Shown here piece after piece: positions 38,484 to 62,308 of a stretch of DNA of 64,000 bases. The stretch is from a virus, in IMG/VR virus record IMGVR_UViG_3300023174_000001, positions 32,001-96,000 of that record. The stretch is one strand, 5' to 3'. The position numbers and the translations under genes are program-made. The notes beneath the pieces are model-generated. The model searched no databases and was not told the origin of the DNA. It saw nothing but the letters and a program-made list of their open reading frames with translations. Each line of letters opens with the position of its first letter. Position 1 is the first letter of the stretch.

Positions 38484-39413
38484 ATGACAGACGCAATTGA
38501 GAGAGACCCGTTTGCCAAACCTGAGTTGGAACTTCCAGATGTCCAAATCGACACCCCTATAAATCTCAGACCCGACCTCAGTCTCCACGGAATTGAAGAG
38601 ACCGACCGTGGCGTATGTCTGGACACATTTGAAAATAGACAAGCGTTGCGTAGGGCTAAGTTCAATTGGCTTCCCGTCTACGCTCTAAACGGAGTTCCGA
38701 CTGGACTAATCCAAGCCCTCTCCCCGGAGATGCAGAGCCAGCAACGGCTAATGTCGCTTGAAGAAAAGTTAGCAATTCTTTCGGACCCTAAAGATAAAAA
38801 TTCTGATTATATAACTGGCTATGACTTATTAGCCGAGTCTGCTTCAGACTACATCGCACCTCCTTGGGTACTTGGAGCAACACGGGCTTGGGCTAAGCAA
38901 CAGAATTCAGGCGAACTCTTGCATGGAAAAAAGGAACTCCCTTTTCCTCGACGCTGTAAAGCAATCAAAGATGATGGCATCAGATGTCAACTCTGGTCTG
39001 GGGGCCGAGGGGCAGACGATGGCTTGTGCCGCGTTCATTTGGGCTCCTTACGCAATAAACCTACCGACTCAGTTGAGCGTGCCCGTCATCGACTTACTCA
39101 AGCAACTCCATCCGCCGTTGATGTTCTCGAACAACTTATGGACAACGCTGAGTCCGAACCCGTCAAACTCAAGGCGGCCACCGAAATTCTTGACCGTGCT
39201 GGCATTCGTGCTGGTATTGACATCAATACCGATGTCACTATTGATGTCCGCCCCGCAGCATCCATCATCTCCGAACGGTTGGAGCGTTTAGCAAATAACG
39301 CCATAGAAGCACAACGGCGTTTACAATCAGCCCAGAGCGAACACGAGACTATAATAGAAGCAGAGGTCGTAGAAGACGACAAGAAAACCGAGACCGATGT
39401 CAAACCTGAATAG
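38484..39413 (+). CDS. Hypothetical protein, possibly terminase small subunit-like
   Basis: RCKA...G.RC...CRVH finger and VKLKAATEILDRAG motif. Confidence 0.4.
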   Translation: MTDAIERDPFAKPELELPDVQIDTPINLRPDLSLHGIEETDRGVCLDTFENRQALRRAKFNWLPVYALNGVPTGLIQALSPEMQSQQRLMSLEEKLAILSDPKDKNSDYITGYDLLAESASDYIAPPWVLGATRAWAKQQNSGELLHGKKELPFPRRCKAIKDDGIRCQLWSGGRGADDGLCRVHLGSLRNKPTDSVERARHRLTQATPSAVDVLEQLMDNAESEPVKLKAATEILDRAGIRAGIDINTDVTIDVRPAASIISERLERLANNAIEAQRRLQSAQSEHETIIEAEVVEDDKKTETDVKPE

Positions 39414-39591
39414 TATAGTAGAACAACTAACGGCGTTGACGGAGGGGCTTCACGAAGATGTTAAACTAGCGTCGACCAGATTGGAACACATCAGGCTGAC
39501 GGCGAGGGCCAACGAAGCGGTCAACATTCTTCACGACCTTATGCTATTCCAGGATGCGGAAGGCCAAGATGCCAACACCGACGGCGAGTGA
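39397..39591 (+). CDS. Hypothetical protein
   Basis: ORF overlapping both neighbours. Confidence 0.5.
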   Translation: MSNLNSIVEQLTALTEGLHEDVKLASTRLEHIRLTARANEAVNILHDLMLFQDAEGQDANTDGE

Positions 39592-40333
39592 ATTACGCGA
39601 ACGCTTCATATCTAAAGCATTAGAGTATGTCGGTTATGAGACACTCAACGGCTTGGAGAATGTCTTCGGTCAACGGCTAGGTCTGAACGGCAAGCCATGG
39701 AACGGAATGTTTATTGATGTCGTCGCCGCAGAAGCGGGCGTGCGTTTACCTGTAGCACACACGGTGTCGACGGTAGCACTTGCCCATTACCTGGGTAGGG
39801 GTTTTTTCCATGTAAGACCACGGCGAGGAGATATCGTCTTCTTCCAAACATCAACGGCAAGCGAATTCGGTATGCCTCACATTGGTATCGTTCTGGACAC
39901 TAAACGGCACGCCACTGACGGTATTATACAAACCGTCGAAGCAATGACGGCAAGCGGATTGCCTAAAAAAGCACAAACACCTAACGGTGTCTATGTACGC
40001 ACCCGTCATCAAACGGAGGTCATTGGATACGCCAGACCAAAATATAAGACGGCTAGCCCTTTGACCCCAAATGAGAACGCACCAGAAGTAGTGCCCGCTC
40101 AGGTCCGAAGTGGGATAAAGCATAAGAGCGTTGTCCATGTGCAGATGGCGTTGTCTAAGGTGACCGGGATTACAGGCTTGCCAAGAGGACACTTTGACGC
40201 AAAGACCAAACTTGCTTACGCAAAGTTCCAAAGAGACATTGGTTATGTGGGCATCTCTGCGTCTGGAGACGCTGACTATAACTCCTTGAAATTACTGGGC
40301 GAACTAACGGGCTTCTTCAACGCAAAGCCATAG
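39554..40333 (+). CDS. CHAP-like domain plus peptidoglycan-binding-like protein
   Basis: PW(N)GMF, PRRGDIVFF, HIGIV, IGYARP; C-terminal KFQRDIG. Confidence 0.65.
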   Translation: MRKAKMPTPTASELRERFISKALEYVGYETLNGLENVFGQRLGLNGKPWNGMFIDVVAAEAGVRLPVAHTVSTVALAHYLGRGFFHVRPRRGDIVFFQTSTASEFGMPHIGIVLDTKRHATDGIIQTVEAMTASGLPKKAQTPNGVYVRTRHQTEVIGYARPKYKTASPLTPNENAPEVVPAQVRSGIKHKSVVHVQMALSKVTGITGLPRGHFDAKTKLAYAKFQRDIGYVGISASGDADYNSLKLLGELTGFFNAKP

Positions 40334-40746
40334 CACAGACCACTGACATTCTGTTGGCGGGAACAAATCCTTATGCTTTTCCAGGCTCAGCGGCTGAAGG
40401 CGGGAAGCCGCGACGGCGGCTGGCATGGAAATAAATCTTAATCGTTATGCGATTCTGCTTGACAAATCCCAAAAATCGCTTTAGGATATGTTCCATATCC
40501 TAAAGTAATTCCAGATATACTTGGCCCGGAACCCCAGTAAACAAGCGGGAGGCGGACCCCGGCCTAAATAAAAACATAAGACGGCAAGCCCTTATGCTAC
40601 ACATTTCAAACGGCGAGCGGGTGACTGAACGAAACAAACGGCAAGCGAAAAGACGGCAAGCCTGGGTACCCCCTTTTTCCATGCAGATGACGGCTTGCCT
40701 TCAACGGGGTATAGAATAAACACATAACGGCAAGCAACGGCAAGCC

Positions 40747-41277
40747 ATGAGCAATAGAAAGATAACGGATATGACATTTGACGAGTGGGTAAAGGTAGGG
40801 TTCGATAACGGGTGGGTTGGTGCTCCTATATGCGAGACGCATGACGGCTTGCCTACAACAGAGGCTGAAGACAAAGAGTTTGAAGAGGGTGGAGACCCTT
40901 GCATTCATATCCTGCGTCTGTACGACACTGTTGAGCAGAAATTAGAAATTGAAGAGAACCATTCGCCATCTGTGTGGCGTGCAACAAACTCTGGACTTGG
41001 CGTTTCTGATTTAGGCTAAATCTTAAAATCACAGGTTTTGTGATGTTTTATGATAAAACCTATGAGACACATAGAACTGCACACAATTGAATCCTCTAAG
41101 GATGTCGCTACTGCTAACGAGGTTGGCCTGGAAGTGGCCGGGGCGGAAACTTGCGAGGAATGTTTCCAGCAAGTTGGCGAAAGTCCACTAAGCAAGAAGT
41201 TTGTCCCCTTTGTCTTTGCCCTAGATGATGAGGCAGAGTGGGTCGTCTGCTTCGAGTGTGCGTCTCCCATCCTCTAG
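40747..41277 (+). CDS. Two small hypothetical proteins (40747-41019, 41050-41277)
   Basis: ORFs; CETHDG and CxxC pairs. Confidence 0.55.
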
Positions 41278-41290
41278 CCCCCATCTAGCA

Positions 41291-41357
41291 ACCAGGTTAC
41301 CCTTTTTTCCATGCAAGTGGATTCCATGCTGACGCATGGAAAAAGAGGGGACCTGGT
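41291..41357. repeat. CCATGC/GCATGG palindrome cassette, copy 1 (others ~45891-45943, 50037-50084, 50815-50880, 52761-52806)
   Basis: TTTTCCWTGC-N-TCCATGC-N3/4-GCATGGAAAA at five loci. Confidence 0.85.
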
Positions 41358-41419
41358 TTTTTGCTTCCTCCCGGCTTCTCATCAGAACTCCTTATGCTTT
41401 TCCGGGGGATACCCTGAAG

Positions 41420-41481
41420 ATTTCGCTCACAGCGAACAAGATAATCTTGACATCCGGGAATGAATCTGGAATGATTGAGTT
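41420..41481 (+). promoter_or_regulatory. ClgR-type box plus SigR/SigH-type promoter
   Basis: TTTCGC-N5-GCGAACA then GGAAT-N17-GTT. Confidence 0.65.
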
Positions 41482-41692
41482 ATAGATAGTATGAACCAAA
41501 TAGAAACACCAGAAAAAAAGATTTCCAAAACCGGGAATAAATCTGGGAGAAGTTTAGTTCTACTTATTACAACTGAATAAAAAGTCAAGGACACGCCAAA
41601 AAAAGTTTTTGAAATGAACTTGACAAGTGTAAGACCCTGTGCTTATACTTTCTAATACCAAATACAAATGCGTCAATTACTAAGGAGACCAA

Positions 41693-42217
41693 GTGAACGC
41701 AAAGACAGAAAAGGACTGTGCTGGCAAGGCACTTTACCTAGAGTTCCGTAAAGAGAACTACACCTACCAAATGATTGCCACTCCACCTGCGATAGATGTG
41801 AATGGCAACTTCATCCCTGCGTGTGCTATGGAGAGAAGACTCTCTTCTTATCACCCACGCAAAAACTGGAACTTTACCAGCGTTCCTGTGAACGACTCAT
41901 TCAAGATTGAGCGTGATGCTAGTGGCGATTTCTCACAGATAGATTTAACATCTGCTGGCGAGATTGGTGCTCTTCACATTCAGCGTTTGTTCGCTCGCAC
42001 CATTGACTCTCTATTCCACAGAGGTTGGACTTTGTTCAAGACACCTGTGGCAGTAGAAGTAACTTACAAGGACTTGGCAACAATCAAGTCTGGTAAGACT
42101 TCCAATGACCTTATTAGACGCATCGAGCGTTCTCGTAAGCACTTTGGATTCCCAGAAGAACTCTTCGACCAACCAGTCGTTGAGCCAACCACTGTCACAC
42201 TGACACCAGTAGTCTAA
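41693..42217 (+). CDS. Hypothetical protein
   Basis: AAGGAG RBS; upstream TTGACA...TATACT promoter. Confidence 0.65.
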   Translation: MNAKTEKDCAGKALYLEFRKENYTYQMIATPPAIDVNGNFIPACAMERRLSSYHPRKNWNFTSVPVNDSFKIERDASGDFSQIDLTSAGEIGALHIQRLFARTIDSLFHRGWTLFKTPVAVEVTYKDLATIKSGKTSNDLIRRIERSRKHFGFPEELFDQPVVEPTTVTLTPVV

Positions 42218-42233
42218 GAATAGGAGACCAATT

Positions 42234-43271
42234 ATGACTACAATCAACCCAACACAAACACCAACCCAGCAAGCAGTTGCTTGGACACGAGACCAAGTTA
42301 GATTGCACCCTAATCTGCCAGAACTACTAAACGCAGTCGTGGGTCAAACTCTAAACTCGGTTTCTGCATCTGACCTTAACCTTGTATTTGACGAGACAAC
42401 TGGTAAAGCAGTTATTCGTAATCGTGATGCAAATCCAGTTAGGAAAATTATGAACGCAGTCGATGCTCTCGCTGGCGAAAGTTTTTACCTGCGACCAAAT
42501 GGTCACAAGTATTACACTCGCTCGTGGGGTCAGCACACTGATGTTGAAGTTGTTCGCAACCAAAGAGCCAGTGAGCGTGGAAAATCAATCCTGCTCTATG
42601 GTGCTCCGGGAACTGGCAAGACTGCTATGTTCGAGGGTGCGTTTGGTGACGACCTAATCACAGTTCTTGGAACTGGCGACACCGAAGTTGGCGACCTAGT
42701 TGGTGGCTATGTTCAAACTGTTGCTGGTGGATTCGAGTGGATTGATGGGCCGCTGGTTCAAGCAGCAGAGCAAGGTAAAGTTTTGCTCATTGACGAGATT
42801 GGTCTAATCGACCCTAAGGTCTTGTCTGTTGTTTATGGACTTATGGATGGTCGTAAAGAACTCAAAGTAACTGCCAACCCTGAACGAGCAATCGTTAAGG
42901 CACAGCCGGGATTCTTTGTGGTTGCTGCGACTAACCCAAATGCTCCGGGAGTAAATCTTTCAGAGGCACTTCTATCTCGCTTTGGTATTCAAGCAGAAAT
43001 GACAACTGACTGGTCGCTTGCTCGTAAGTTAGGCGTTCCAGCACAAGCAGTAACTTGTGCACAGAACCTGTTCAAAAAGCAACAGTCTGACGAGGTCAAC
43101 TGGTCTCCACAGATGCGTGAACTTTTGGACTTCCGTGACATCGCAGAAGACTTGGGAACTGAATGGGCTGTAAGCAATCTAATTGCTCAAGCACCATTCG
43201 AGGACAGAGCGATTGTCGCAGATGTATTTACTCGTGTCTTTGGCACAGAGTTCAAGCCAGCCAAAATCTAG
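42234..43271 (+). CDS. MoxR/CbbQ-type AAA+ ATPase
   Basis: GAPGTGKT, WIDGPL, LLIDEI, ATNP, ALLSRF. Confidence 0.88.
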   Translation: MTTINPTQTPTQQAVAWTRDQVRLHPNLPELLNAVVGQTLNSVSASDLNLVFDETTGKAVIRNRDANPVRKIMNAVDALAGESFYLRPNGHKYYTRSWGQHTDVEVVRNQRASERGKSILLYGAPGTGKTAMFEGAFGDDLITVLGTGDTEVGDLVGGYVQTVAGGFEWIDGPLVQAAEQGKVLLIDEIGLIDPKVLSVVYGLMDGRKELKVTANPERAIVKAQPGFFVVAATNPNAPGVNLSEALLSRFGIQAEMTTDWSLARKLGVPAQAVTCAQNLFKKQQSDEVNWSPQMRELLDFRDIAEDLGTEWAVSNLIAQAPFEDRAIVADVFTRVFGTEFKPAKI

Positions 43272-43425
43272 GTCTCCCAAACAGAGATTTTGGCTAAAGG
43301 GGGGGAGTGGGTCGACAAAATCCCCACTCCCTCTACCCCAAAAAAAGTTTTGAAAAATAGGGAATAATACTTGACTAATGTCAGTTATAACTTATACAAT
43401 GTAGTTATTACACGAAAGGACTCAA

Positions 43426-45294
43426 ATGAGCCACTACAAATTAGATACTAAGCCAGTAGGTCGCACGCACTATGACTGGCTAGGCGTTGGTGCTAGCGTT
43501 GGAAAACTGGTCAACCAGTGGTCGCTACGCAACGACCTAGTTGTTGGTCTGGTCGAAGAGACCACCATTGGTGCACCTGCTTGTTTCAACCCTGCTAGTG
43601 CCGAGATTGAAGTTTGCATCAGCAAAGCATTTGGCAATGGAACTACTGCCAAAGAAGTTGGCGAACTAACTCAACGCAAGAACCAACTAAAGCACGCTGT
43701 TGCGACTGGTGCGATTTATCACGAGGCACTTCACGCTCGTGTTTCACGCTGGTCATTAGAGCAAGCATCCAAAGACCTAACTGCGAGAGAGTGGCGTTTC
43801 CTAAACTCTATGGAAGAGTCTCGTATCGAGTTCTGGGGTTGCAAGTATGTTCCACAGAACAGAACCCTACTTCGTGCTTGTGCGATTGAGATTGTCATTG
43901 GCGACTTGGAATCACACATTGAAAATGTTTCTAAGGTTGATGCCGCTGCGAACCTTGCGTTGCTAACTTTGGCTCGTGTTGATGCTGGCGTTCTAGACGA
44001 GAGAGACATTGTTGACTCTGTTCAGAAAATCCTTACCGAAGTTTTGAGCGAAGAAGTTATTTCTAAGTTGCGTGCTATCTGGAAAGATTTCCAGAACCAC
44101 CAAGACCACGCTAACGCTCTTCCACTTTACGACCTAACTCGTGAGTTCCTAAAAGTTCTAGACGAGCGTAAAGAAGAGACTGGCGAAGAAGAGGGTCAAG
44201 AACCAGAGGGCGAATGTGGCAAGCCGGGTGGAGAGCCGGGCACTGGAACTGGTAAGGGCGAACCTACACCAGAACAGATTAAAGAGTTCAAGGACTTTAT
44301 CGAAAAGGTCAAGGATGCTATCCAAGACATCAAAGAGCAGGTTCAGATTGCTAACCAGACTGAACTAGACGATGAACTCGATGCAGAAGAACGCAAAGAA
44401 GAAGTCGAGGCTCGTGAGCAAAAAGCAAACCAGCAGAAAGAAAACAAGAAAGAATCTAAAAAGGTTTTTGACAACACCTCAACTGATTCTCACATCACCA
44501 CTGCTGGAACTAAATCACGCTTAGTTGAATCTCGTAATCCAACTGGCGATGAAGTTGCTAGTGCTAATCGAATTGCTAACGCTCTGCGTAAAGCAAAGTA
44601 TCGTGAGCGTTCACAGACTCGCATTGGTAGTGTTGTTCCACCGGGTCGCTTGCGTTCTCGTGCTGTCGTTCAAGGTCAAGCACAAAAGGCTCGTGGTATC
44701 TTCACACCAGTCGAGGCTTGGAGAACTACTAAGCGTAAGACCACAGAAGACCCTACGCTGAATGTTGGCATTATGGTTGACATCTCTGGCTCTATGCGAC
44801 CAGCAATGACACCAATGGCTATTACTGCTTGGGTTATGTCAGAGGCTGTTCACAGAGTTCAGGGCAAGTCAGCAATGGTCTACTATGGTCAGGATGTATT
44901 CGCACCACTTAAGCCGGGACAGCGTTTGACTAAGGTCAACACTTTCACAGCACCAGACTCTACCGAAGAGTTTGATAGAGCGTTCAAGGCTCTAGACGGT
45001 GGCTTGGGTATCACTCACGCTGACGGTGCTAAGTTGCTTGTGATTGTTTCTGACGGTCATTACCGACCTGACCAGAAAGCAAAAGCACGCAAGATGCTGA
45101 AAGAGGCTGACCGTAATGGCGTGGCTATTCTGTGGTTGACCTTTGACGGTAAAGTTGCTGAACCGACTGAACTGTTGAGCGGAACTGCTGGCAAGGTTGT
45201 ATCACTGGCGAGCAACGAATCACCGACCAGAGCATCACAGGTTATCGGTGAGACCGCAGCCAAAGTTCTGTCGGCTATCGGTTCAAGGGTCTAA
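43426..45294 (+). CDS. VWA-domain protein (CobT-like) with N-terminal HExxH
   Basis: HEALH, EESRIE, acidic linker, MIDAS DISGS, VSDG. Confidence 0.85.
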   Translation: MSHYKLDTKPVGRTHYDWLGVGASVGKLVNQWSLRNDLVVGLVEETTIGAPACFNPASAEIEVCISKAFGNGTTAKEVGELTQRKNQLKHAVATGAIYHEALHARVSRWSLEQASKDLTAREWRFLNSMEESRIEFWGCKYVPQNRTLLRACAIEIVIGDLESHIENVSKVDAAANLALLTLARVDAGVLDERDIVDSVQKILTEVLSEEVISKLRAIWKDFQNHQDHANALPLYDLTREFLKVLDERKEETGEEEGQEPEGECGKPGGEPGTGTGKGEPTPEQIKEFKDFIEKVKDAIQDIKEQVQIANQTELDDELDAEERKEEVEAREQKANQQKENKKESKKVFDNTSTDSHITTAGTKSRLVESRNPTGDEVASANRIANALRKAKYRERSQTRIGSVVPPGRLRSRAVVQGQAQKARGIFTPVEAWRTTKRKTTEDPTLNVGIMVDISGSMRPAMTPMAITAWVMSEAVHRVQGKSAMVYYGQDVFAPLKPGQRLTKVNTFTAPDSTEEFDRAFKALDGGLGITHADGAKLLVIVSDGHYRPDQKAKARKMLKEADRNGVAILWLTFDGKVAEPTELLSGTAGKVVSLASNESPTRASQVIGETAAKVLSAIGSRV

Positions 45295-45396
45295 CGGCTC
45301 GTGTAGGGGTCGGCTTGCTAAACGGCAAGCCTATCCCTATAATAAATAACGGCAAGCCTAACGGCTCGCCTAAACGACAAAGAGACGGCAAGCGTA

Positions 45397-45837
45397 ATGG
45401 CGTGCCAGATAAGGAGACTCACGGTGGGTCAGTATCACATTTTAGTAAACATAGATAAGCAGGAGTGGGTAGACCCTCACGGCTTAGGTCTAGGCTCAAA
45501 GCAATGGGAGAGTCAGGTTGGTTGCGAGGGTTCGCTATCAGACGCTATGTATGTCCTCACAATGACAAGCCCGGATAGTGGTGGTGGAGATTTACCACGC
45601 ACAGACATTTCAGGTCGCTGGTGTGGAGATAGGGTTTTGATTGTAGGAGACTACACAGGGGCAGATGCAGTTCCAGGATTTACTGGGGCTGACGCTATCT
45701 ACCAACTGGCTACGCAAAGTCCTGATTACAAGAACATAACTGGCGAAGTTCGTGAGGCGTTCTCCAAAATCTTCGAGATTGCTTATGTCCAAGAGAACAT
45801 TGGCAGTCATACATTCTGGAAGAGAACTCTGGTCTAG
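45397..45837 (+). CDS. Hypothetical protein
   Basis: GQYH..VN.DK.E, GRW.GDR...GDY; true start probably GTG near 45424. Confidence 0.6.
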   Translation: MACQIRRLTVGQYHILVNIDKQEWVDPHGLGLGSKQWESQVGCEGSLSDAMYVLTMTSPDSGGGDLPRTDISGRWCGDRVLIVGDYTGADAVPGFTGADAIYQLATQSPDYKNITGEVREAFSKIFEIAYVQENIGSHTFWKRTLV

Positions 45838-45997
45838 CCTCTAAATAAAATAATCCCCTGCGAGTCAGGGGATTTTTTATGCTCGAAAAATAGGGTGTCC
45901 ACTTTTTCCATGCAAGATGGTTTCCATGCTTCGCATGGAAAAACACAAGACCCTAGTGCTTCTTATGCTTTTTCTTCTCCCTCTGGGCTCATCTTCC

Positions 45998-46059: not shown

Positions 46060-46071
46060 ATAGTTAGAGTA

Positions 46072-48613: not shown

Positions 48614-48642
48614 TCTGCCCCGAATAGAAAGACAAAAAGACA

Positions 48643-52005: not shown

Positions 52006-52009
52006 GCCG

Positions 52010-52345: not shown

Positions 52346-52349
52346 CCTT

Positions 52350-53280
52350 TTTAATAAAATAATAAAAAGTCGCAAGAGGACTTGCGAAAAAGCATAAGAA
52401 ATGCAAAAAAGCATAAAAAGGCGAAGAAATGCGAAAAAAGAGGCGAAGAAGCGAAGGCGAAGAAAATAAATAAAAGCAAAAAGAGGCGAAGGCGAGGAAA
52501 AATAAAAGCATAAGACACATAGAAAAAATGGATACCTGCAAAAAAAAACTGATGCCTCAGCGAAAAAACCTGATGCCTCAAAAAAAGATTCATGGGAAAT
52601 GAAAGTTTCACTCTGGCGAAAGAAGTTTCAGGCTGGCTGAGGCTGGAAAAGTGCGTCTAGATAGGCTCTGGGAAGCCTATTCAGGCGTGAAAGCGTGAAA
52701 AGTGGGGGAAGGTGCGTAGTTTCAGGAAAAAGCGAAGGGGAGGGAGTCGAAAAGAGGGTGAGGGGTTTTTCCATGCAAGTTTTTAGTCCATGCTTCGCAT
52801 GGAAAACTAGATGACCGGGCTTGCTTCCAGGTAAGCCTCCCATCCAGGATTTCCAGGGCCTGGAGGAAGAAAAAGCATAAGGATAAAGAAAAAAGCGAAG
52901 GAAGCGGCTCATCTCATGTGAAAAAGAAATGAAAAAGAAAGAAGAAAGAAAGAAAAAGCAAAAAGTATAGAAGAACTGATGAGTAAAGTCAAGCGAGTCG
53001 AAAAAAGTTTTCCATCTTGCATGGAAAATAAAGCCGCGTGCTTCACTTTGCGGCACAAGGAAGTTGAGTGGATTCATGTATCCTCAGGTCGAGGAAGAAA
53101 AAGTATAGATAATGTTTTATGTTTGTCAAGTCGATTTGTAAAAAAGTTGATGAGTCCCATGCAACTCTGCTTCTGGAAAATAGGGTAGCCGCATTTTCCA
53201 TGTGCCGCAGTTTGCTTTTTCACTTGACTTTTCCTGCTTCTTGTGTTTTTTCTTATTATAACTTTTTGATAACAGCGTCT
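52350..53280. other. Non-coding purine-skewed low-complexity tract
   Basis: A/G-rich plus strand with AAAAGCATAA, GCGAAG and CTGATGCCTCA repeats. Confidence 0.7.
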
Positions 53281-53347
53281 TCAGTCGGGAATAAATGTTG
53301 GGCTTCATGGGTTATCTATCATGTAGGCACTAAGGGAGGTGATTAGT

Positions 53348-56300
53348 ATGGTCAAGTTCTATTTTATTTTTGATGGCTTCGGTTATCCACTTTGCGAGAA
53401 GCACTCAGGAGGGTTGCTTCTTGGGGTGGATACTCACCTGAGTTGTCATGCTTGCGACAAACTCGATAAGGAGTAGTCGTCAGCGAAGTTGCTCCCCTGA
53501 TTAAGTTCAGGGGGGCAATTTTTTTTGCATGGGCAGGAAAAAAGTTGCCGTGCGTGCATGGAAACTCTTGCCGCCTGGCTTGATGCCGATACATGATGAA
53601 TCGCAATGGGATTTGTGTGCCGAAGATTTTTTTTTGGAACGCCGTTTATTTTCTTTTTCTTTTTTTCTGCAACACGGGAATAATTTGTCACCTGTGAGTG
53701 TTATTATATATGTAGGCACTAAGGAGGTGATTGATATGGCAAAAACTTACAAGATTGGACTTGTGTTTTCTTTCGAACCTGAGGGAGAACACGCCGACAT
53801 CTTCGAGGGCATGGACAAGACCGAGGAACAACTCATCGTGTTAATGAAGAACCTCGTGTGTGAGGACATCGATAGATATGTGAAATACAACGAAGTCTTC
53901 GAAGGTCTTTCAGTAGAAATTATAGAAGAGTAATCTTCGCCGAACCCTCTGGGAATAATTTGTCAGGGGGTTCGGTTAATATCTTTATAGGCACTAAGGG
54001 AGGTGAGAACTATGGAACTAACAGAACTAGAAGCATTAGCAGTAAAGTCTATCTACACCGATTACCACGCTGGAGCAACTAACGCCGATGAAGCGTTGCA
54101 CGCTTTAGAACAACTAATCAATGGCGGGCTAACACCTTGCGACAAGTGTGGCGACAAGATACAGACAGATATCCACGCCGAAGAACTCGGTATGTGCGTT
54201 GATTGCTCTAACGAGTATTTCAGTCATGAAGAGTAGGAACTAACGCCGACTCATCTCAAGACCCTCGAACAGAAATGTTCGGGGGTTTTGTTTTACGCCG
54301 AGAGGCTGAGCCGCTTCCATCACGCATGGAATAAGCGGCTACCCCGGTTCGCCTCCGTGCGAGGAAAAATACTTACGCCGATTGGGAATAAAAGTGAGGC
54401 GATTGTGGTTTATATTAATGAAGGAAGATTGGAGAAAGAAATGTTTGTAGAGAAAAAAGGTGATGCTGAACTAGCAGAACTATTTGCTTTGGGACTTATC
54501 GCCGAACCAGAAGATAATGGAACGCTTGTGTTAGTGCCGTGTGCCGACCCTGTTATGTGTGAGATACACGGAACTTATTGGATTGAGAAAAGAATAAAAA
54601 AAGTCTTGACACCGACCAAGTAAAGTTGTATAGTAGTAGTATGTCAATGAAAGGACACCGATAATGAACCAAGATAAACTAATCGCCGTTTGTGAAAAAC
54701 TCTATGACAAGCGTGGTGCTAGTGCTATTTACGACTACATCAACGCTAATCACCGAGAACTAGATTGGTATTTTTGCCAGCCTTGCGACACCGATACACC
54801 AGCAACTAACCAACTAAAATGCTTAGTTTGTGGAAGTGCCGTGCTTCTAGGGTATCAAGATAAGTTCGCCGAGTTCATGTAATCCAAATCGAACCAAGAC
54901 CTCGTGCTGAAAAGTGCGAGGTTTGGTTTTTAGCAATCCAGGTGCACGGAAAAACAGAACACCCAGGCACTTGACAAAAAGAGTTTCATCAATAACAATA
55001 GAAACAACAACACCGAAAGGAAACAAAATGAACTACGAGTTCTTATTTACAATGTGGGAGTGTATTGGTTGCCGTCTGCTTTACAACGACGAGCAAGACA
55101 AATGCACCAACTGCAAAAACAAGTGCGAGCCAATTAAAATCAAAGGCGTAAGGGCATAAACTCCGTTATCAAAAAGTTATACGGAAATGCTTGACAATGC
55201 CGTTCATTACAATAAACTAGAAGTGTAGTGAAACAACTAACAAGGAGATAAAAATGAAGATTCTTATTGGATTACTAGGTATCTGGTGCTTTTGGAACGC
55301 TTTGCGTATTACCGACCAACTCGGTCATGTAATGGTTTTTGGTGGCGACCAAAGTGTTCTTTGGGCTGGATTAGTTTTATTCTTATCTGGAACTTTTGGC
55401 TGTGTTATTGCCATCTGTGCTGAAAAGAAGTAGCCAACACCGAAAAGTCCCCTCATCTCAGGTGGGGGGATTTTTTCTGCCCATGCCATTTTGGTAGGCG
55501 GCAGGTTTTTCCATGCTCCCGTGTTGGATTTTTTTTTTCGGATACGGGAATAATTTCTCCATCATCGTGGTTGTCTTATGTATGAGCAAAGAAAGGAGAA
55601 ATCCAATGGACACCGACAAGAACAAAACTTGGGAAGAGTGGCTAAATACGCCTGGGAACGCTAAGAAGTTTCTAGAGTGGGTATTTGACCCTAAAGTAGA
55701 TGCCGAACTAGAAGCCCTTGCAAAAGAAACCAACTAAGGAAAGAGAAACTGTGAGAACTAAACTAACTCAGGAAAGAATCACCGAACTGGACAAACTTGA
55801 CCGAATTAGAACTTACGACTTGCTATACCGAGCGATGTCTGTGGGGCTAATTCCGTTTCAGCCGAACCTTAGGCTAAAGCGTATGGTCAGAGTAAAGAAG
55901 TCTGGCAACTAAAAACACCGAAAACATTTTTTACCAAATGGGAATAAAATGTCGGACTAATGTGTTATTATCAGTATGTGAGTAATCACAAAGACAAAAA
56001 GACAAAGGAGATAAAGTGGCTTCATCAGCAACTTACACCGTTACACTAACGACTAACTCTACGAGTTACATTACAACTATCACCACTCCGTCTAGCGACG
56101 AAGAAACTATTTACGAGTTGGCGATAGAACGCATCAAAGAAGAAGATGGCTTTGATTTATCTGGACACCGATTAGTTGATACAACTTACGAAGTATTGGA
56201 AGTGTGGGACTAATAATGAGTGCTACCGATTACAACGACCTAAGCAGACACATTGGACACAAGGTGGAAGTAGTTACTTACGCCGATACTAATGTCGCCA

Positions 56301-57438
56301 TTGAGTGCGAAGAGTGTAGTGAAGTGCTACTGGACTTTGATAAAGAAGTTGAGTGCGAGAACCACACTTGGACTTTACAAATGAATCTTCCGAACATACC
56401 AATTCGCAACTACTGCGAAGAGTGTGGTGCGATAGGAGAAGCCGACCCCGATGATGTAGCAGAACAAATCCGACTATTAGGAGAGAACGAATAATGATGA
56501 ATAACACCGAACTACTTAATTATCTACAAGACAAGGTAGGTGAATTGTTTGAGAACATCAGACATGACGACACCTATGGCGATTTCAGAGATGGTGCTAA
56601 AGATTACCTAATCCAAATCACAGACATAATCGCAGAACTACAAAGGGAGAACCTAAATGAATCAGGAAACTAAAATCAACACCGATAAGTTATCCCCTGA
56701 GTTTTATGTGTGGGAGAACGACTACGAAGAAGTCTGGGCTACTGAGAGTAATCCTTTCTTCGTAATCCGTAATGGCGAGATGCGAATCATCGTCAAGAGT
56801 GCCGATGAATCACAAGAGATAATCAGATACACCGATGCTCTGGAGAAGTTTGGCATCACTACCGATAAAGAACTAGAAGAGTGGTCTGGGAAGAGTGAAG
56901 AACTATTCTCAGTTGGTATGAATCCTTGGTTTGAGATTTGGTCTGTGAAAGACACCGAGTTTTACTCAGAGCCATACTTTGACCTGAAAGAAGCCATCGC
57001 ACAAGCCGAAGTAATGCTTGCCGAGTATCCAACTGGCATCGTAGATTAGTCAGAACTAAAAAGGAAAGCCCATGCTGAAGAGCATGGGTTTTCTTATGTT
57101 ATTCCGAAACACCTGGGTATCCACTTTTTCCGTGTGCCGTGATGGTTGCCTTCATCTGCTAAGTTGTTCTCATGTCAGTATTTCATCAAGCGACCCCCGT
57201 AAAACTCGTAAATGCAGATGAAGAACGCATTTCCTTCATCTATTTCTTATCTGGTGGGGAATACGACAGTAAGTTTGTGCTGGTTTCTTCCGTTATTACA
57301 CCGAATTATGAAGAAACAGCAGTATTCATCTGCAACGACTCAACTGGCGAAGAAGCAGAGTGGGAGAACACATTGGCAAAAATCTATCATGTGGATACAG
57401 AAGAAGTGCTAAACAAGATGGGATACACAACAAAGTAG
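53348..57438 (+). CDS. Array of small hypothetical genes (53348-53476, 53736-53933, 54012-54236, 54441-54623, 54664-54882, 55028-55159, 55254-55433, 55606-55737, 56016-56213, 56204-56494, 56657-57049, 57172-57438)
   Basis: Mostly with their own promoter and strong RBS; many carry CxxC pairs. Confidence 0.6.
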
Positions 57439-57442
57439 CCGC

Positions 57443-58006
57443 TTGACATGGAAAATAATAAGACTTATTATTAGCCGCAAAGAAGAAATGACGAAAGGAA
57501 CTCAGATGGGCACAAATGTTCATGGTCTGAAGCCAAAGCACTCCGTAGGCGAGCAGTTTGGTAGAAATGTTTGGGGCTGGACTCCGTTGATGGGCTACAT
57601 CTCAGCACAGCACAAGAAGTTTGAGAAGTTGTTTGAGAAAAACCGACTCACAGAACTGCAAGCCAACAAAATTGCCGATGCATTATTTGACGACATCGCA
57701 TCTGGCAAGGCCGAAGCATACGCCGATAAGTTTATGAATAAAATCGCTACCCTCCCTGAAGTCCCATGTGAATTTTGCGAGGCCACAGGCATCAGAAAAG
57801 ATGCCGTAGGCATGGAAAAGGGTATGACCCACCTAGTGCTAGACCCCCGCCTCGCTCAACAACTTGGAAGACAGCGTGGGTGGTGCAATGGATGCTTTGG
57901 TTATGGGATGAAGAAGAGTTCCGACAGTGCTTACTATCTAGAACTTACGGATGTAGTGGAATTCGCCGAGTTCTTACGCAACTGTGGTGGAGCAAAAATA
58001 TCTTAA
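57443..58006 (+). CDS. Hypothetical Zn-finger protein (paralog of 58272..58811)
   Basis: RNVWGW, CEFCEATG, CNGCFGYG, EFAEFL..CGG. Confidence 0.65.
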   Translation: MTWKIIRLIISRKEEMTKGTQMGTNVHGLKPKHSVGEQFGRNVWGWTPLMGYISAQHKKFEKLFEKNRLTELQANKIADALFDDIASGKAEAYADKFMNKIATLPEVPCEFCEATGIRKDAVGMEKGMTHLVLDPRLAQQLGRQRGWCNGCFGYGMKKSSDSAYYLELTDVVEFAEFLRNCGGAKIS

Positions 58007-58271
58007 AAAATCTTTTGCGACACGCTTGACAAATGTCAGATGTGTTGTGTAGATTATCTATGTATCCACTCGACAACGAAAGGCAGATACAAATGTACGA
58101 AGACTACGAAGACGAAAAACAGTATGTTAGAGAACTTTACTGGGAGTCAAAAGGTTTGGGCGGTTACGACAGAGTTACCGTAGAGCCGATTGTTTTAGCA
58201 GGAGAAGAAATCTCTTGCCCTAAGTGCAACAGGATAAGAGACAAAGCAATAATCGAACAACACTTGCCTAA

Positions 58272-58811
58272 GTGCAGTGGGACTGGAGAATAAAAATGGG
58301 TATGGATGTTTATGGCACTAAGCCGAAGAACGAAACTGGAGAATACTTCCGCCGTAATGTTTGGGGCTGGAGAGGTCTTTGGGACTACTGCTTAGATACT
58401 TTTGAGATTGCTAACAAAGTAGAAGATGGGCACTCTAATAGTGGAGATGGTCTAAACGCCGAGAACAGCAGACAACTTGCTGAGCAGATGAAAGCAGACA
58501 TAGCAAGTGGTGCCGCTCAGGACTACATCACAGCACGCAATCACAAACTGGCTAGTTTAGAGAGACTCGCTTGCGATACATGTGCTGGCACTGGTATTCG
58601 TACCGATGATGTTGGTGTCTTCCACGATATGCCGACAAGAGAGTTGTCTCCAGAGATGGCATCACTAACTGGTCGCACACACGGATTCTGTAATGCTTGC
58701 TCTGGTGAGGGTAAGACAGACGACTGGGAAACTAACTATCAGTTCGACCTAGAAGACATTAAAGAGTTTGCCGAGTTCGTTGAGAACTCTGGTGGATTTA
58801 GGATTTGCTAA
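58272..58811 (+). CDS. Hypothetical Zn-finger protein
   Basis: MGMDVYG, RNVWGW, CDTCAGTG, CNACSGEG, SGGFRIC. Confidence 0.7.
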   Translation: MQWDWRIKMGMDVYGTKPKNETGEYFRRNVWGWRGLWDYCLDTFEIANKVEDGHSNSGDGLNAENSRQLAEQMKADIASGAAQDYITARNHKLASLERLACDTCAGTGIRTDDVGVFHDMPTRELSPEMASLTGRTHGFCNACSGEGKTDDWETNYQFDLEDIKEFAEFVENSGGFRIC

Positions 58812-58814
58812 AAG

Positions 58815-59075
58815 ATGGAGAATAAAATGAAAGCAAAGACAAAAACAGAAACAAAAATGAATACCGTTGCTTGGGATTGGTTTATCGCAAGATATACCAA
58901 GATGGGCTACAAATCACTCAACCAGTTTGCTATCGCAACTGGACTACAAAAGAGTAGCCTAAGTCGCTACTTTCATCGCCAACGCCAGATGCCGTCAGGC
59001 ATGATGGCAACACTTTGCCGAGAACTCAAAGTAACTCCTAACGAGTTGATGCGAGCCCTTGGGGAGTGGCAATAA
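58815..59075 (+). CDS. XRE/Cro-like HTH protein
   Basis: SLNQFAIATGLQKSSLSRYF...P. Confidence 0.75.
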   Translation: MENKMKAKTKTETKMNTVAWDWFIARYTKMGYKSLNQFAIATGLQKSSLSRYFHRQRQMPSGMMATLCRELKVTPNELMRALGEWQ

Positions 59076-59239
59076 GACCCCGCTATAAGTAGCAAACACC
59101 TGAGGTATGTGTCTAAAATGCCTCTTTTTCTCCATAAACACCGATTTATGGGGTAAAATAGACCTCACAACTGAATATAGTGTCACTTCGACAATAAACG
59201 ACCCCAGTGCTAACTAACAAGGAAAGGTAAGGTCGCTAA

Positions 59240-59800
59240 ATGAAAAAGTATGTATTAAGTGCCAGCATAGTTTTAACTCTCGCTGGTTGTACTGCATCTG
59301 CCTCAATAGCAGATATGCAAACAGCATTAGTAACACCTATTAGTGCCGTAAAAGAAAAACAAACAGCATCTAAAGAAGTATCAGTTACTCACTCTCTAAT
59401 CAAAGAGGCTAAGAGTAGGCGTAATACCGTTAGGATGCAAAAACTAATAAAGTATCTGAAGACCCGTGTAAATAGGACTTCCTATGTGTTTTCAGGTTCC
59501 AGTCCCCGTGGGTGGGACTGCTCAGGTATGGTTCGATGGACTTACGAGCAATTTGGTTTAGAAATACCACACTCCGCTAATAAGCAAGCACACATAGGAC
59601 AAAGAGTGTCTAAACCAAAACAGGGAGATATCGTTGTATTCGCATACAAAGGCTCCACCTCTTTCTACCACTCCGCCATCTATATTGGAAATGGCAAAAT
59701 TATCAACGCACATTACGAGGCTGACTCCACGATTATTCAGCCACTTACCGACTACAAAAGTAGTCAGATAAGGTTCGTAAGGTTAGTGCCCACCATGTAA
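59240..59800 (+). CDS. NlpC/P60 (C40) peptidase with signal/lipobox
   Basis: LAGC lipobox-like, YVFSG, DCSG, GDIV, HSAIYIGNG. Confidence 0.9.
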   Translation: MKKYVLSASIVLTLAGCTASASIADMQTALVTPISAVKEKQTASKEVSVTHSLIKEAKSRRNTVRMQKLIKYLKTRVNRTSYVFSGSSPRGWDCSGMVRWTYEQFGLEIPHSANKQAHIGQRVSKPKQGDIVVFAYKGSTSFYHSAIYIGNGKIINAHYEADSTIIQPLTDYKSSQIRFVRLVPTM

Positions 59801-59939
59801 AGGAACTCCCCGTCAGAAATGGCGGGGATTTTCTTTTACCGATAGACCTGGGTGGCAGGTTTTTCCTTTCAGGAATGTGCTTGACAACGGGAATATTTTG
59901 CTATAACTTATAGTTATTACACATGACGAAAGGCTTCAA

Positions 59940-62308
59940 ATGAAGACAATGTTTATTTCTATCCCTGTTGGGGCTCTACTTGTGATGCTAGCGTTTAGCA
60001 TCAAGGCTGGGCTAATCAATCTAACTGCCGTTCAGGTGGCTGGAATGCTAGGTGGTATTGCTCTCCTAATTGGTGGTGCTGTTGGCATCGTTGATGTTTG
60101 GCAGAACAGACCTGCTCAGTTCCGCCGTATGAGGAAAGGTCGTAGAGGCTAATGCGTATCAGACTTATATCAACTACCGACCCTTACACCGACCTAAAGG
60201 CTGGAGACGAGGGAGAAGTTATCTCTACTAAGCAGAGCAATTGGCTTGGCTTTATTGACTACAGACTAGAAGTTCAGTGGGACAATGGCTCAACTCTGGC
60301 TCTCTATGAATCTCAGGATAAGTGGGAAGTAATCTCAGAGTAGAGATGCTTGACAATGATACCGATTGACTGTATCCTTATAGCAACACAAACGACAGAA
60401 AGACCCTAATGACAACACCAGTAATTATTGACACCGAGATAGCAGAAGTTATGAAGGCTATCGACACAAAGCGTAGTCGCATCTATCTACTGAATGAGCG
60501 TATTGCTTACAACAAAAAGCACGCTTGGCTATCAAGAGATACAGAGACTAAAGAAATAGAGCGAGACAAACTCGATAAAGAGGTTGCCGAACTCGTAGAG
60601 AAACTTAGAACCTTAGAAAGTTTCTACACTGGCTGGTCTCGTGCGTTTTTAGTGCGGAATAGTAATGGACACATTCACAGGAGTCGTGAGTGCGGTACTT
60701 GCTTTGACACAACTCAGTATGTTTGGCTTACCGATATGTCTGGTCGTGATGAACTAGAGATTGCGTTCCTTGCTGGTGAAAAGGCTTGTACTGTTTGCTA
60801 CTCTCACGCCCCGTCTTCTTACTTTCTTCGTGAGAGCGGATTAGAAGACCCAGAAGTTACTGAGGCTCGTTTGGCTCGTCAGGCTCGTAAGGCAGAGATT
60901 GAGGCCAAGCGTCTGAAGACTGGCATCTGGAATCCAGATGGCACACCGCTAGTGGTGCTTGAATACGCATTTAGTAGATACAAGACTGAGGTCAAGGCAG
61001 AAAGAACTGCTCAGTCAATTGCGGTCAATATGCTAGTTGGTATTCAAAGTATGGGTCGCTCACCTGAAGAGATTGAGCGTAGCAAAGATGCTATTGAAAC
61101 TATCTTGATTGCCTTGGCTCACAAGCGAGGCACTTCAGTTGAGGAACAGCGTTCTCTAATTCAGACTAAAGCCGATGCTATGATAAAAAAGAACAAGCGT
61201 GATTATCCAGATGTGAATTGGTCTTCAAGATAAGCATCTAGGTTTGGGCTATAATTGGATTACTTACAGCAAAGGATTATGATGGCAGAAGAAAAAGCAT
61301 CTCCTACACCAAATAACTTCACTCAAATGAGTGCCGAAGATATGCACGCTCTCATCGAGAAAGAGGGCAAGAACTTTGTCACTCAGACTGAAGAGGGAGA
61401 TATACCGCTAAATGACTACCTAGCATCAGAGGGGTTTGACCTTACTCGGTTGATGAACCTATTCTTTGCTTTTGAGTACTTTGAGCGTAGCAACCCTAGT
61501 CAAAAGAATTACGATGGCAGATATGGCTTGTTGTATGAAATTGTATATACTGAACTGGGTAAGTTGCTTGGCAATGACCTATACGGACCTGAGTATGTAA
61601 TAGGTCTATAAACTAGACACAAACAAAGAAAGACAAAAAGACGATGATACACAGGCTACTAAAATCCATAAGCGGTATTGGTTTCAGACTTGGCCACTGG
61701 GCACAGTGGCAGTCAATGAAATTCCCTAGCAAGAAATACCGAAAGAGATACTTGACAAATGTCCTAGGCTATGCCTATGATTATCTTGTTGGAAAAATCC
61801 AACAACTAAAAGCCGAAAGGAAAAAGTAATGTCAGAAAAACTAATTGGGTTTACCGATGATGAAATCGCATTTGCTGTATCAGTACTAAAGTACACAGGA
61901 ACTAAACTTAAGGAACAGCACGATGCTAGCCACTCAGGTGTAGACCAGTTGCTAATCAACAGTTGGGCTATCTCGACAAGCGAACTGCTATCTAAGTTTG
62001 AGGTACTGCTACCAACACCAGAGCCTTCAATCGCCGATGAAGACATTCCAGAGCGACCAGAGGCATAATTTATGCTCTTAGATAGAAAAGCCCCCCTAGC
62101 AGTCGCTAAGGGGGTTTTTCTCTGCTATGATTGACATTTGTCAAGTCAATCGAGGTGAATTATGGAACTATTTATTGCTCTAGCAACAATTTTTATATTT
62201 GTTTGTCTAACTGGGCTATCTATACTCTTCATAGCATTTTGGTTAGTAAATTCTGTTCTCGGAAGTAAAGAATCTCGGATAGATTACGGATTAGACGAAG
62301 AAGATTAG
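59940..62308 (+). CDS. Hypothetical genes (59940-60152 membrane, 60152-60343 DUF4314-like, 60409-61233, 61255-61611, 61644-61829, 61829-62068, 62162-62308)
   Basis: Co-oriented ORFs; DPY...G..V.WDNGS.L motif in 60152-60343. Confidence 0.6.
62085..62120 (+). terminator. Intrinsic terminator (others at ~45852, 50774, 52028, 54259, 55446, 57065, 59807)
   Basis: GC stems followed by T tracts after gene groups. Confidence 0.7.

Follow-up and report, generated by a model that had tools for sequence, protein, structure and literature searches.

Several kinds of short, repeated or oriented DNA sites provide a background for the locus described here. Iteron and centromere arrays, such as the lambda O iterons, P4 ori/crr and R1 parC, consist of ~10-bp direct repeats at helical spacing, which are sometimes intragenic or divided among multiple clusters. 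Stoperators show a striking correlation between their orientation and that of transcription, and they are inactive when reversed (PMC9283540). Chi sites lie in one orientation in the phages LLS (20 of 23) and MD8 (32 of 32) (PMC12315714), and the injection stop region of phage T5 has a proposed role in stepwise DNA entry (10.1101/866236). Here, we describe two fields of short strand-specific motifs, a set of ACGGC arrays and a dispersed RCCGA field, in a 64,000-nt stretch of viral DNA (the window, i.e., the whole stretch analyzed) that covers bases 32,001 to 96,000 of the record IMGVR_UViG_3300023174_000001, a single assembled sequence of 135,069 bp with a GC content of 43%.

The ends of this sequence overlap by ~90 bases, which indicates a circular assembly. 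It is a putative large phage of freshwater actinobacteria and encodes a primase-helicase, ribonucleotide reductase, DNA methyltransferase, virion proteins, an endolysin and a large terminase; the window stretch occurs in DNA runs from lake or other freshwater metagenomes. Among named relatives, the closest is the metagenome-assembled Actinomycetia phage DSL-LC01 (identity of 68% for the primase, 78% for the terminase and 56% for the gene at 38,484–39,413), followed by cultured Microbacterium and Arthrobacter phages of 186–195 kb. A megablast search with 39.0–53.5 kb revealed no near-identical phage record, and a more distant search returned an AAA ATPase fragment only. From the letters alone, a sequence-only reading had proposed that CGG/CCG motifs change strand around a central landmark and serve as oriented sites. 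Our analysis supports the view that both fields are nucleic-acid-level, strand-specific signals under selection, because they survived codon-aware null models, are found in every frame as well as in spacers and show both conservation and turnover of sites in relatives.

The left field consists of four (+) strand ACGGC arrays

The fields and the non-coding landmark between them are as follows (gene coordinates throughout are open reading frame [ORF] calls of unverified genes).

39,275–40,848, (+) strand: cluster 1, or field A, with 33 ACGG (39,275–40,844) and 2 CCGT
44,996–45,483, (+) strand: cluster 2, with 11 ACGG (44,996–45,479) and 1 CCGT
49,526–49,829, (+) strand: cluster 3, with 12 ACGG (49,526–49,825) and 2 CCGT
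52,012–52,347, (+) strand: cluster 4, the densest array, with 15 ACGG (52,012–52,338) and 0 CCGT
52,348–53,528, no strand: non-coding landmark with polypurine tracts, AAAGCATAAG repeats, a CATG-rich hairpin cassette, a promoter-like element and a ribosome-binding site
53,529–62,068, (+) strand: R field, with 68 RCCGA in 8.6 kb of small (+) strand genes and spacers

Between 39.3 and 52.3 kb, ACGG occurs 72 times on the (+) strand and 5 times on the (−) strand (as CCGT). All but one of the 72 copies fall in the four clusters, the same four places where dense ACGG(C) had been noticed by eye; a single extra copy (51,917) is present across the ~10 kb between clusters, and ACGG has been removed from the genes there. 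The clusters are placed behind stop codons or terminators and also over the 5′ two thirds of the endolysin gene. Specifically, field A runs from the end of the gene at 38,484–39,413 across a small ORF and ~510 nt at the start of the endolysin gene into the spacer that follows. Five full sites of cluster 2 occupy the 100-nt spacer (45,294–45,394) between a gene for a CobT-like protein and the next gene, where they overlap a promoter-like match (TTGCTA-17-TATAAT). Cluster 3 lies behind the stop of the gene at 49,180–49,560, astride a terminator-like hairpin, and the start of cluster 4 is the 3′ arm of a 17-bp terminator hairpin (~52,024–52,060).

A position matrix of 47 ACGGC sites revealed the consensus R-ACGGC-W-A-G-C-C, which is asymmetric, 10–11 nt long and not palindromic, with ACGGCAAGCC present in 10 copies. 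ACGGCWRGC occurs 29 times in the window, compared with 1.14 ± 0.91 in 100 dinucleotide shuffles, and 25 of these lie on the (+) strand between 39,687 and 52,267; two of the four (−) strand matches (38,086–38,109) are explained by the KPAVKK peptide repeat of the protein encoded at 37,835–38,203. Across the whole 135-kb genome, ACGGC[ATG]NG[CG] was found 46 times on the (+) strand and 10 times on the (−) strand (~8 expected per strand), and 39 of the 46 are located at 39.5–52.3 kb of the window, every one co-oriented with (+) strand genes.

The idea that the sites penetrate coding sequence was borne out. The ORF at 39,554–40,333 (+) is an endolysin gene (40% identity to the DSL-LC01 endolysin and a PHROG endolysin match), and the sites in this region occupy all three frames, with 11 ACGGC against 3.9 expected in two genes. 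In a codon alignment, the window gene contains 16 ACGG, 15 in the first ~480 columns and one near the 3′ end with none between. Six array-bearing genomes have 15–18 copies each in this gene, almost all within the first 510 nt, while the last 270 nt contain 0 in array-bearing relatives and 1 in the window. Some of these sites are common between lineages and others are lineage-specific.

Spacings between neighboring sites in five lineages peaked at 13–14, 16, 22–24, 27 and 34–36 bp, with a periodicity maximum of 10.75 bp (vector strength 0.27; 135 spacings) that was reached by 1 of 2,000 jittered sets; since the lineages are related, this helical periodicity is suggestive rather than a clean probability. 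RNA folding beyond the terminator was slightly better than in shuffled sequences (z = −2.2 for cluster 4 and −2.4 for cluster 3), and an Rfam search of 38–64 kb at E ≤ 1 returned a chance lncRNA match only. Given the helical spacing preference, the weak RNA structure and the lack of an Rfam family, the left sites are probably read on double-stranded DNA (dsDNA). When 596 Gb of prokaryote genomes were scanned for pairs of adjacent sites, no host array appeared among the at least 120 matches listed; single matches were near chance level (~65, a rough estimate), and loci with many sites belonged to high-GC genomes, presumably to coding sequence.

As a separate observation, the contig pieces or loose ends of three metatranscriptome runs, each from a different study, terminate at 49,582–49,637, at the start of cluster 3, one of them at an adapter, which is a weak hint of a transcript end.

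CCGGG had also been described as locally common. This holds for the (+) strand, where 11 of 18 copies lie at 41.1–44.9 kb (41,138–44,918), but not window-wide (39 versus 40.0 expected); five (−) strand copies are found at 50,886–51,985. CCGGG may be a third local oriented word, or it may reflect chance.

RCCGA in the right field is imposed by synonymous codon choice

Genes left of the landmark (41.7–52 kb) are referred to as L genes and those to its right as R genes, the R set being 24 (+) strand ORFs that tile 53.5–62.1 kb. Earlier hand counts of RCCGA (5 in 54,001–54,301 and 7 in 56,657–57,049) proved exact, and the enrichment persisted under codon-aware null models. The R set contains 60 RCCGA, compared with 25.2 ± 4.0 in 500 synonymous shuffles (maximum, 38; z = 8.7) and 17.6 ± 3.7 when codon order was shuffled. 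The excess is seen in all three frames (44, 7 and 9 versus 18.9, 2.1 and 4.3 expected) and extends to the R-field spacers (1,043 nt), which contain 8 RCCGA versus 1.6 expected and 1 TCGGY. The consensus is A-Y-R-CCGA, with 13 copies of ACACCGA versus 2.2 expected; AYRCCGA occurs 49 times in the window versus 15.8, including 32 copies on the (+) strand at 53.6–61.7 kb.

The right motif is imposed by a choice of ACC or GCC before GAN, in agreement with the codon pairs pointed out in the sequence-only reading. In R genes, ACC accounts for 19 of 33 ACN codons before GA, versus 17 of 127 elsewhere, and GCC for 25 of 40 GCN codons, versus 22 of 123. No shift to C before GA was observed in R genes for CCN (1 of 14), TCN (1 of 6), GTN (0 of 17), GGN (6 of 23) or CTN (2 of 17), and no ACC/GCC preference before GA was found in L genes (7 of 26 and 6 of 33) or in distant (+) strand genes (4 of 36 and 7 of 44). 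By gene bin, the share of RCC-GA codon pairs was 11 of 15, 17 of 27 and 10 of 22 at 52–61 kb, 9 of 20 at 37–40 kb and not more than ~35% elsewhere in bins with at least 10 such codon pairs, with higher shares in small bins at 13–16 kb (3 of 4 and 6 of 12) and 79–82 kb (4 of 5) of the window. Moving rightward from the landmark, RCCGA density is 13, 10 and 10 per kb before dropping to 2–3, and it falls from 21–25 per 2.5 kb to 4 at the start of the large terminase gene (window position 65,039). We also considered out-of-frame TGA avoidance as a source of NNC-GA and rejected it, the effect being modest (83 versus 105) and not specific.

CGG is below the codon-aware null in all gene sets (82 versus 124 expected in distant genes), and its depletion is strongest beside the arrays (31 versus 72) and in R genes (20 versus 57.7).

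Polarity changes between two different motifs

The ACGG:CCGT ratio goes from 72:5 at 39.3–52.3 kb to 9:33 at 53.5–62.1 kb, with the change located between the last (+) strand ACGG (52,338) and the first CCGT (53,548) or GCCGA (53,586). Relative to synonymous shuffles, R genes contain more CCGT (28 versus 16.5) and less ACGG (7 versus 17.7). The array core is absent from R genes on the sense strand only, where ACGG[CT] occurs 0 times versus 9.3 expected and [AT]CGGC 0 times versus 7.6. The predicted polarity switch is, therefore, real for the ACGG/CCGT tetramer, but it does not extend to the longer motifs, which are different left and right: they have only CGG/CCG in common, their flanks differ at nearly every position, and they are not reverse complements. 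The contexts of CCGT on the right are also unlike a reversed array site, and GC skew is positive on both sides of the landmark with no sign change. Because the extended motifs differ and the skew stays positive, we read the boundary as the meeting of two systems and not as one inverted motif. The proposal of oriented sites thus survives as strand-specific, selected signals that change at a 1.2- to 1.5-kb non-coding stretch, but no single motif flips and no FtsK/SpoIIIE is encoded; a KOPS/Chi-like or injection/packaging role is a hypothesis.

The landmark is built from parts that recur in the region. Its hairpin cassette has the form TTTTTCCATGC..GCATGGAAAAA, and the usual order is a large hairpin rich in CATG, then a second hairpin, then a promoter-like element (GGGAATAA...GTTAT...) and finally a strong ribosome-binding site, a series that is found repeatedly in the region and also follows clusters 3 and 4. 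The two recurring elements are located as follows.

41,290–41,358; 45,891–45,955; 50,020–50,102; 50,811–50,886; 52,750–52,825: intergenic inverted-repeat cassette, TTTTTCCATGC..(TCCATGC-N3-GCATGGA)..GCATGGAAAAA
41,533; 43,360; 46,395; 50,237; 51,471; 53,287; 53,676; 53,951; 54,384; 55,546; 55,940; 59,889, (+) strand: promoter-like element GGGAATAA, ~16 nt, GTTAT..TAT, twelve copies

The GGGAATAA element often has AAAAAAGTTTTG before and GGCACTAAGGAGGTGA after it and precedes small genes on both sides of the landmark; a scan with consensus promoters gave numbers near shuffle level (20 versus 16.9). CATG is depleted genome-wide (144 versus 396 expected), with 44 of its copies in the 80–90 kb bin of the genome. 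Since the cassette recurs through the region, the landmark is not a unique feature but the largest of several similar intergenic modules (another is at 49.6–50.3 kb), and the notion of a central landmark, which also lacks a GC-skew flip, was not upheld. Several assemblies break inside it, which low sequence complexity may be enough to explain. Within the purine tracts, the (−) strand ORFs (52,628–53,077 and 49,838–50,221) were set aside, their translations being of low complexity.

Long (+) strand polypurine tracts lie at 49,840–50,020 and 52,380–52,980, beside clusters 3 and 4, with AAAGCATAAG and GAAGCGAAG repeats; a T-rich tract (50,098–50,190) follows a polypurine tract, and the AAAGCATAAG word is inverted at 40,37x, 41,39x and 45,96x. 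These tracts might form an R-loop or mark an origin or a repeat border. One could accordingly imagine that the ACGGC clusters are replication-origin iterons or centromere-like sites and that the purine tracts form R-loops for initiation. The direct repeats with their helical spacing preference, the tracts beside clusters 3 and 4 and the encoded primase-helicase would fit this scheme, and origins of the lambda type also lie inside a gene. However, four or five clusters with ~70 sites far exceed known origins, GC skew does not change sign, and no partition ATPase or initiator gene is adjacent among the Pfam and PHROG matches of the larger ORFs, so that we consider an origin or centromere very unlikely.

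Both fields are conserved in uncultured relatives

Ten IMG/VR loci were found via the CobT-like protein, at 99–43% identity. Nine of the ten have (+) strand arrays at syntenic places, down to 50% identity of the CobT-like protein, with (−) strand sites nearly nil ([+]/[−] counts of 36/0, 41/2, 27/0, 25/0, 25/0, 32/0, 15/0, 23/1 and 13/0). The array unit in the 50% relatives is TTG-ACGGC-TCGCC-TTTTT. In place of arrays, the 43% relative has a field of 38 ACGGC sites dispersed over 4.7 kb, with 5/2 full sites and 45/17 ACGGC. Seven further loci were found via an R-field protein (72–97% identity), and all seven display an array, a 1- to 2-kb gap and then 10–14 RCCGA per kb decaying over 5–8 kb, with TCGGY near zero. 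In three alignments at ~72–74% nucleotide identity, relatives keep 24 of 37, 9 of 17 and 19 of 26 window RCCGA sites, compared with ~30–33% for any 5-mer, and they have 18, 12 and 11 sites of their own. Retention above the 5-mer background, together with the relatives' own sites, indicates that RCCGA sites are under purifying selection as judged from these alignments and are also turning over while density is held.

Four palindromes, ACGT, AGCT, GATC and GCGC, have 0 copies each in the 135,069 bp (338, 676, 346 and 235 expected), and TGCA, CATG, CCGG, CGCG, GGCC and TTAA are also depleted genome-wide. The banned sets differ by relative: those at 73–75% keep GCGC, those at 50% keep ACGT and GCGC, and the one at 43% is without GATC only, which looks like lineage-specific restriction avoidance. 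Such a ban distorts many words, CGG is depleted everywhere (82 versus 124 in distant genes), and R genes are slightly richer in [TA][DE] dipeptides (73 in 2,499 codons versus 80 in 4,893), all of which could make the fields a functionless by-product of the ban on four 4-bp palindromes, of codon usage or of amino acid content. Yet the ban is genome-wide and the fields are local, the synonymous shuffle still gives z = 8.7 with amino acids and codon usage held, no alternative codon pair would create a banned word, the motif is enriched in spacers as well, and sites are conserved at twice the background rate. A by-product is, in our judgment, extremely unlikely.

Among cultured relatives, Microbacterium phage Cece has an RCCGA excess in genes 1–27 (0–10.5 kb; 86 versus 59.4 ± 5.3), with RCC-GA in 67 of 99 cases versus 42% elsewhere and no RCCGA excess in its other three gene sets. 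The excess is weak in genes 1–2 of Atuin (12 versus 6.4) and at 0–5 kb of A3Wally (33 versus 26.0), and there is no left-end RCCGA excess in Pumpernickel or Zooman. In the (−) strand genes 3–4 of Atuin, the excess stays on the (+) DNA strand (9 versus 4.6; z = 2.9; small sample), a small-sample hint that the motif is read on DNA there.

These data also bear on whether the motifs are read on RNA, i.e., whether A-Y-R-CCGA tags early mRNAs for an endoribonuclease or RNA-binding regulator, for which T4 RegB with its GGAG provides a parallel, and ACGGC repeats are bound in untranslated RNA. In all genes of the region, both motifs lie on the sense strand, the right motif is also found in spacers that are possible untranslated regions, and contigs from RNA libraries cover parts of both blocks, including the three runs that stop at 49,582–49,637 (a weak hint). 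On the other hand, cluster 4 should be little transcribed behind its 17-bp terminator, helical spacing indicates dsDNA, the Atuin genes 3–4 have the motif off the sense strand (in a small sample), and L and R genes share the promoter-like element with the motif in R genes only. We regard an RNA reading of both fields as unlikely.

The left block resembles a long terminal repeat

The block that bears the arrays starts with the gene listed here.

38,484–39,413, (+) strand: conserved 309-aa gene, gene-1 homolog (56% identity to a DSL-LC01 protein; weak PHROG small-terminase match, E = 5e-4)

Its counterpart in phage Cece is annotated "terminase small subunit." By tblastn, gene-1 homologs in Microbacterium phages begin ~60–80 bp from the left end and lie within the long terminal repeat (positions ~80–980; 7 records). 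Ten linear records of cultured phages, 7 of Microbacterium and 3 of Arthrobacter phages, each contain the homolog in two places, and the 11th match, in the circular DSL-LC01, is in one place. The exact direct terminal repeats that we computed are 18,079 bp for Cece and 19,963 bp for Pumpernickel. Gene order in the window is as in these cultured phages (gene 1, endolysin, many small genes, large terminase), and the large terminase is 61.8% identical to that of Cece. The inner repeat ends of Cece (17,400–18,079) and Pumpernickel (19,260–19,963) are 600–700 nt of non-coding DNA with G runs, CATG repeats and purine-rich tracts, like 52.35–53.5 kb of the window. They share a border of the forms ..AAATAAGGGC / TTTC.. 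and ..ATATAAGGAC / TTTG.., preceded by TAGAGGGGGGTC and CATG-rich repeats and followed by GCCAAACGA.AAATTT..AAGGT.CACACTT. From this synteny, we infer that ~38.4–53 kb may be a long direct terminal repeat that was collapsed in the circular assembly. Because synteny and the 62%-identical large terminase match the left block to the repeat of Microbacterium phages, the polarity change probably marks the inner border between repeat and unique sequence.

Two comparisons stand apart from this argument. The DUF6011 protein of the window (see below) does not resemble the product of the last gene in the Cece repeat. A candidate bottom-strand ACGG signal guarding the predicted left end was dropped, with CCGT in the gene-1 homolog at 7 versus 3.7 here and 1 versus ~5 in two relatives.

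If the left block is a terminal repeat, the arrays might handle it, either as stop or anchor sites for stepwise entry or as places where the terminase recognizes the DNA or pauses during cutting and duplication of the repeat. The arrays stay within the block whose synteny matches the terminal repeat of Cece and Pumpernickel, they start at the 3′ end of the small-terminase-like gene, and the large terminase shares 62% identity with its counterpart in a long-repeat phage. Set against this are the four clusters over 13 kb in place of one site, the lack of arrays in cultured relatives with such repeats and the avoidance of ACGG in neighboring genes, which repeat handling leaves unexplained; moreover, the repeat itself is a predicted one, with equal depth on both sides. 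It seems to us a doubtful, indeed unlikely, function for the arrays.

A different arrangement, which develops the proposal of the sequence-only reading, would place genome ends inside the landmark and make both fields Chi-like sites facing outward from them. A helicase-nuclease moving left from the right end would read 5′-ACGGC on the top strand, one moving right from the left end would read 5′-TCGGY on the bottom strand, and each would be tamed before reaching essential DNA. The flip of the ACGG core (72:5 to 9:33) fits this model, both readings are G-rich pentamers (WCGGY), and sites are densest close to the landmark on either side (cluster 4 with 15 sites; 13, 10 and 10 RCCGA per kb). The Cece excess begins at the physical left end, and that of Atuin stays on the (+) strand in its (−) strand genes 3–4 (9 versus 4.6; z = 2.9). 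Phages LLS and MD8 provide a precedent for terminally clustered Chi sites of one orientation (PMC12315714). The motif flanks, however, differ at nearly every position, so a single enzyme is unlikely to read both motifs. For the left sites, helical spacing and a 10-nt site favor dsDNA binding over scanning of single-stranded DNA, synteny places the left end upstream of 38,484 and not in the landmark, and the largest ACGG field lies 12 kb away from the landmark. We also know of no actinobacterial Chi sequence, which we count against the model. On balance, outward-facing Chi sites appear rather unlikely.

A tentative model with two separate systems

The explanation that we favor, tentatively and at somewhat less than an even chance, is that two separate cis-acting, strand-specific motif systems are split by the non-coding stretch at 52.35–53.5 kb, with roadblock arrays on the left, a dispersed polar signal on the right and the left block as terminal repeat. 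The arrays are predicted to be binding sites for a sequence-specific dsDNA-binding protein and would act as orientation-dependent transcription roadblocks or insulators, which may keep the lysis gene and neighboring units silent or separated in the block that would enter the cell first. The roadblock reading follows from the asymmetry of the sites, their co-orientation with transcription, their placement at unit ends and over the lysis gene, the sense-strand-only avoidance nearby and the stoperator precedent. A-Y-R-CCGA could serve as a dispersed polar signal that is read as DNA, in a Chi-like control of a host helicase-nuclease, or else as part of early mRNA; since all genes of the region are on one strand, these two versions are inseparable.

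Several points weigh against the two-system model. The absence of (−) strand genes in the region makes orientation to transcription inseparable from orientation to the genome. The mechanism is wholly an inference. Unlike stoperators, the sites form clusters within 13 kb, some of them intragenic, and no repressor homolog turned up in an analysis that included no search aimed at repressors and brought up a 94-aa HTH_3 protein. Contig depth in one DNA run (X3) is 8.6–9.6 left and 8.3–10.0 right of the landmark, without the two-fold difference of a packaged repeat, which concatemeric DNA would not give either. The periodicity was obtained from lineages that are not independent of each other. No ACGGC arrays were found in DSL-LC01, the closest named relative, or in the cultured Microbacterium phages; the RCCGA field of Cece starts at the physical left end, inside the repeat and not behind it, and a left-end RCCGA excess is clear in only one of five cultured relatives (Cece).

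As both fields are conserved in uncultured freshwater relatives, they would appear to be functional, and synonymous sites in ~8 kb of genes are constrained by a non-coding signal. The fields sit in the module that enters the cell first in cultured relatives, and the arrays are, to our knowledge, among the densest oriented site arrays in a phage. A broader reading, which we consider unlikely, is that an actinophage clade writes two one-strand "address codes" into its first-entering DNA, namely, protein-loading sites specific to the repeat and a 7-nt motif on the first unique DNA, that direct stepwise entry, end protection or packaging. If true, this would include the first sequence with a Chi-like or entry-control role to be defined in phages of Actinobacteria, imposed on genes via synonymous sites alone. 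The identity of the readers would tell how this widespread, unstudied group of large actinophages controls early transcription, genome entry or end protection, and it could yield a Chi-like sequence for the Actinobacteria, where none is established. In metagenomic phage assemblies, such fields can also serve as markers of genome ends and early regions, and they call for caution in codon usage analyses.

Neighboring genes and candidate readers

Two proteins encoded in or beside the left block are candidate DNA binders.

48,643–48,927, (+) strand: candidate reader of the ACGGC sites, a 94-aa Cro/C1-type HTH protein (Pfam HTH_3, E = 6.8e-11)
37,835–38,203, (+) strand: second candidate DNA binder, a 122-aa protein with a lysine-rich KPAVKK/PVAKK-type tail

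The latter gene directly precedes a terminator and is the last one before the predicted repeat start; we take its tail to resemble those of actinobacterial histone-like proteins. The 146-aa protein encoded behind cluster 2 matched only unnamed viral clusters in an ESM Atlas search. A MoxR/CobS-like AAA_5 ATPase and the 622-aa CobT-like protein form a conserved pair (42,234–45,294) in the middle of the array-bearing block, which is also found in DSL-LC01. The gene at 51,526–52,005, the last before cluster 4, encodes a C-terminal DUF6011 zinc-ribbon-like motif (Pfam E = 2.7e-12). Its homolog in DSL-LC01 is 28% identical and differently ordered relative to the homologs of R-field genes, which indicates that the module has been rearranged.

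Comparison with known systems

Searches of the literature on Microbacterium phage terminal repeats, phage Chi and stoperators revealed no description of these fields, although supplementary motif tables might hold one, and the matches listed for 10-mers were unrelated by title (primers, guides).

Iteron and centromere arrays resemble the left field in having direct repeats at helical spacing (10.75 bp here, in related lineages). They have far fewer sites and an adjacent initiator or partition gene, and neither feature is seen here: no Rep or Par family was present among the Pfam/PHROG matches of the larger flanking ORFs, which comprised a MoxR-type AAA ATPase, CobT-like, DUF6011 and HTH_3 proteins.

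The KOPS/SRS motifs of FtsK/SpoIIIE are likewise polar and change orientation at a landmark. They differ in being 8-mers that are read by a translocase and lie at low density over chromosome arms, the density here being 100-fold higher. Their switch goes with replication skew, whereas the core here flips at 52.3–53.5 kb with positive GC skew on both sides. FtsK_SpoIIIE (PF01580) gave 0 matches in the 135-kb genome and was positive in control genomes, a result that concerns phage-encoded enzymes only.

The T5 injection stop region is a large untranslated, repeat-rich region with inverted repeats and arrays of protein-binding boxes in the inner part of a long terminal repeat with small early genes (10.1101/866236), an arrangement similar to the present one, where the repeat is a predicted one. 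T5 has DnaA boxes and a single region, in contrast to the unrelated motif, four clusters and sites inside a gene observed here.

The Chi sites of the lambdoid phages LLS and MD8 share with these fields a short motif that is over-represented in one orientation and concentrated in part of a phage genome (PMC12315714). The motif there is a known host 8-mer at ~1 per 1.9 kb, compared with a 5- to 7-mer at 8 per kb here. Chi sites, which are recognized by a host helicase-nuclease of the RecBCD, AddAB or AdnAB type, also have the same motif throughout, whereas left and right here share only CGG.

The stoperators of cluster A mycobacteriophages (L5 gp71-type), which have a cognate immunity repressor with an HTH and a stoperator domain, are also short, asymmetric, multi-copy intergenic sites of actinophages (13-mers there and 10- to 11-mers here). 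Stoperator orientation correlates with transcription; here, every site is co-oriented with genes and the sense orientation is purged from neighboring genes, in a region without (−) strand control genes. Stoperators, however, are single sites over whole genomes of temperate phages, while the arrays here contain 5–33 sites, are partly intragenic and extend over 13 kb.

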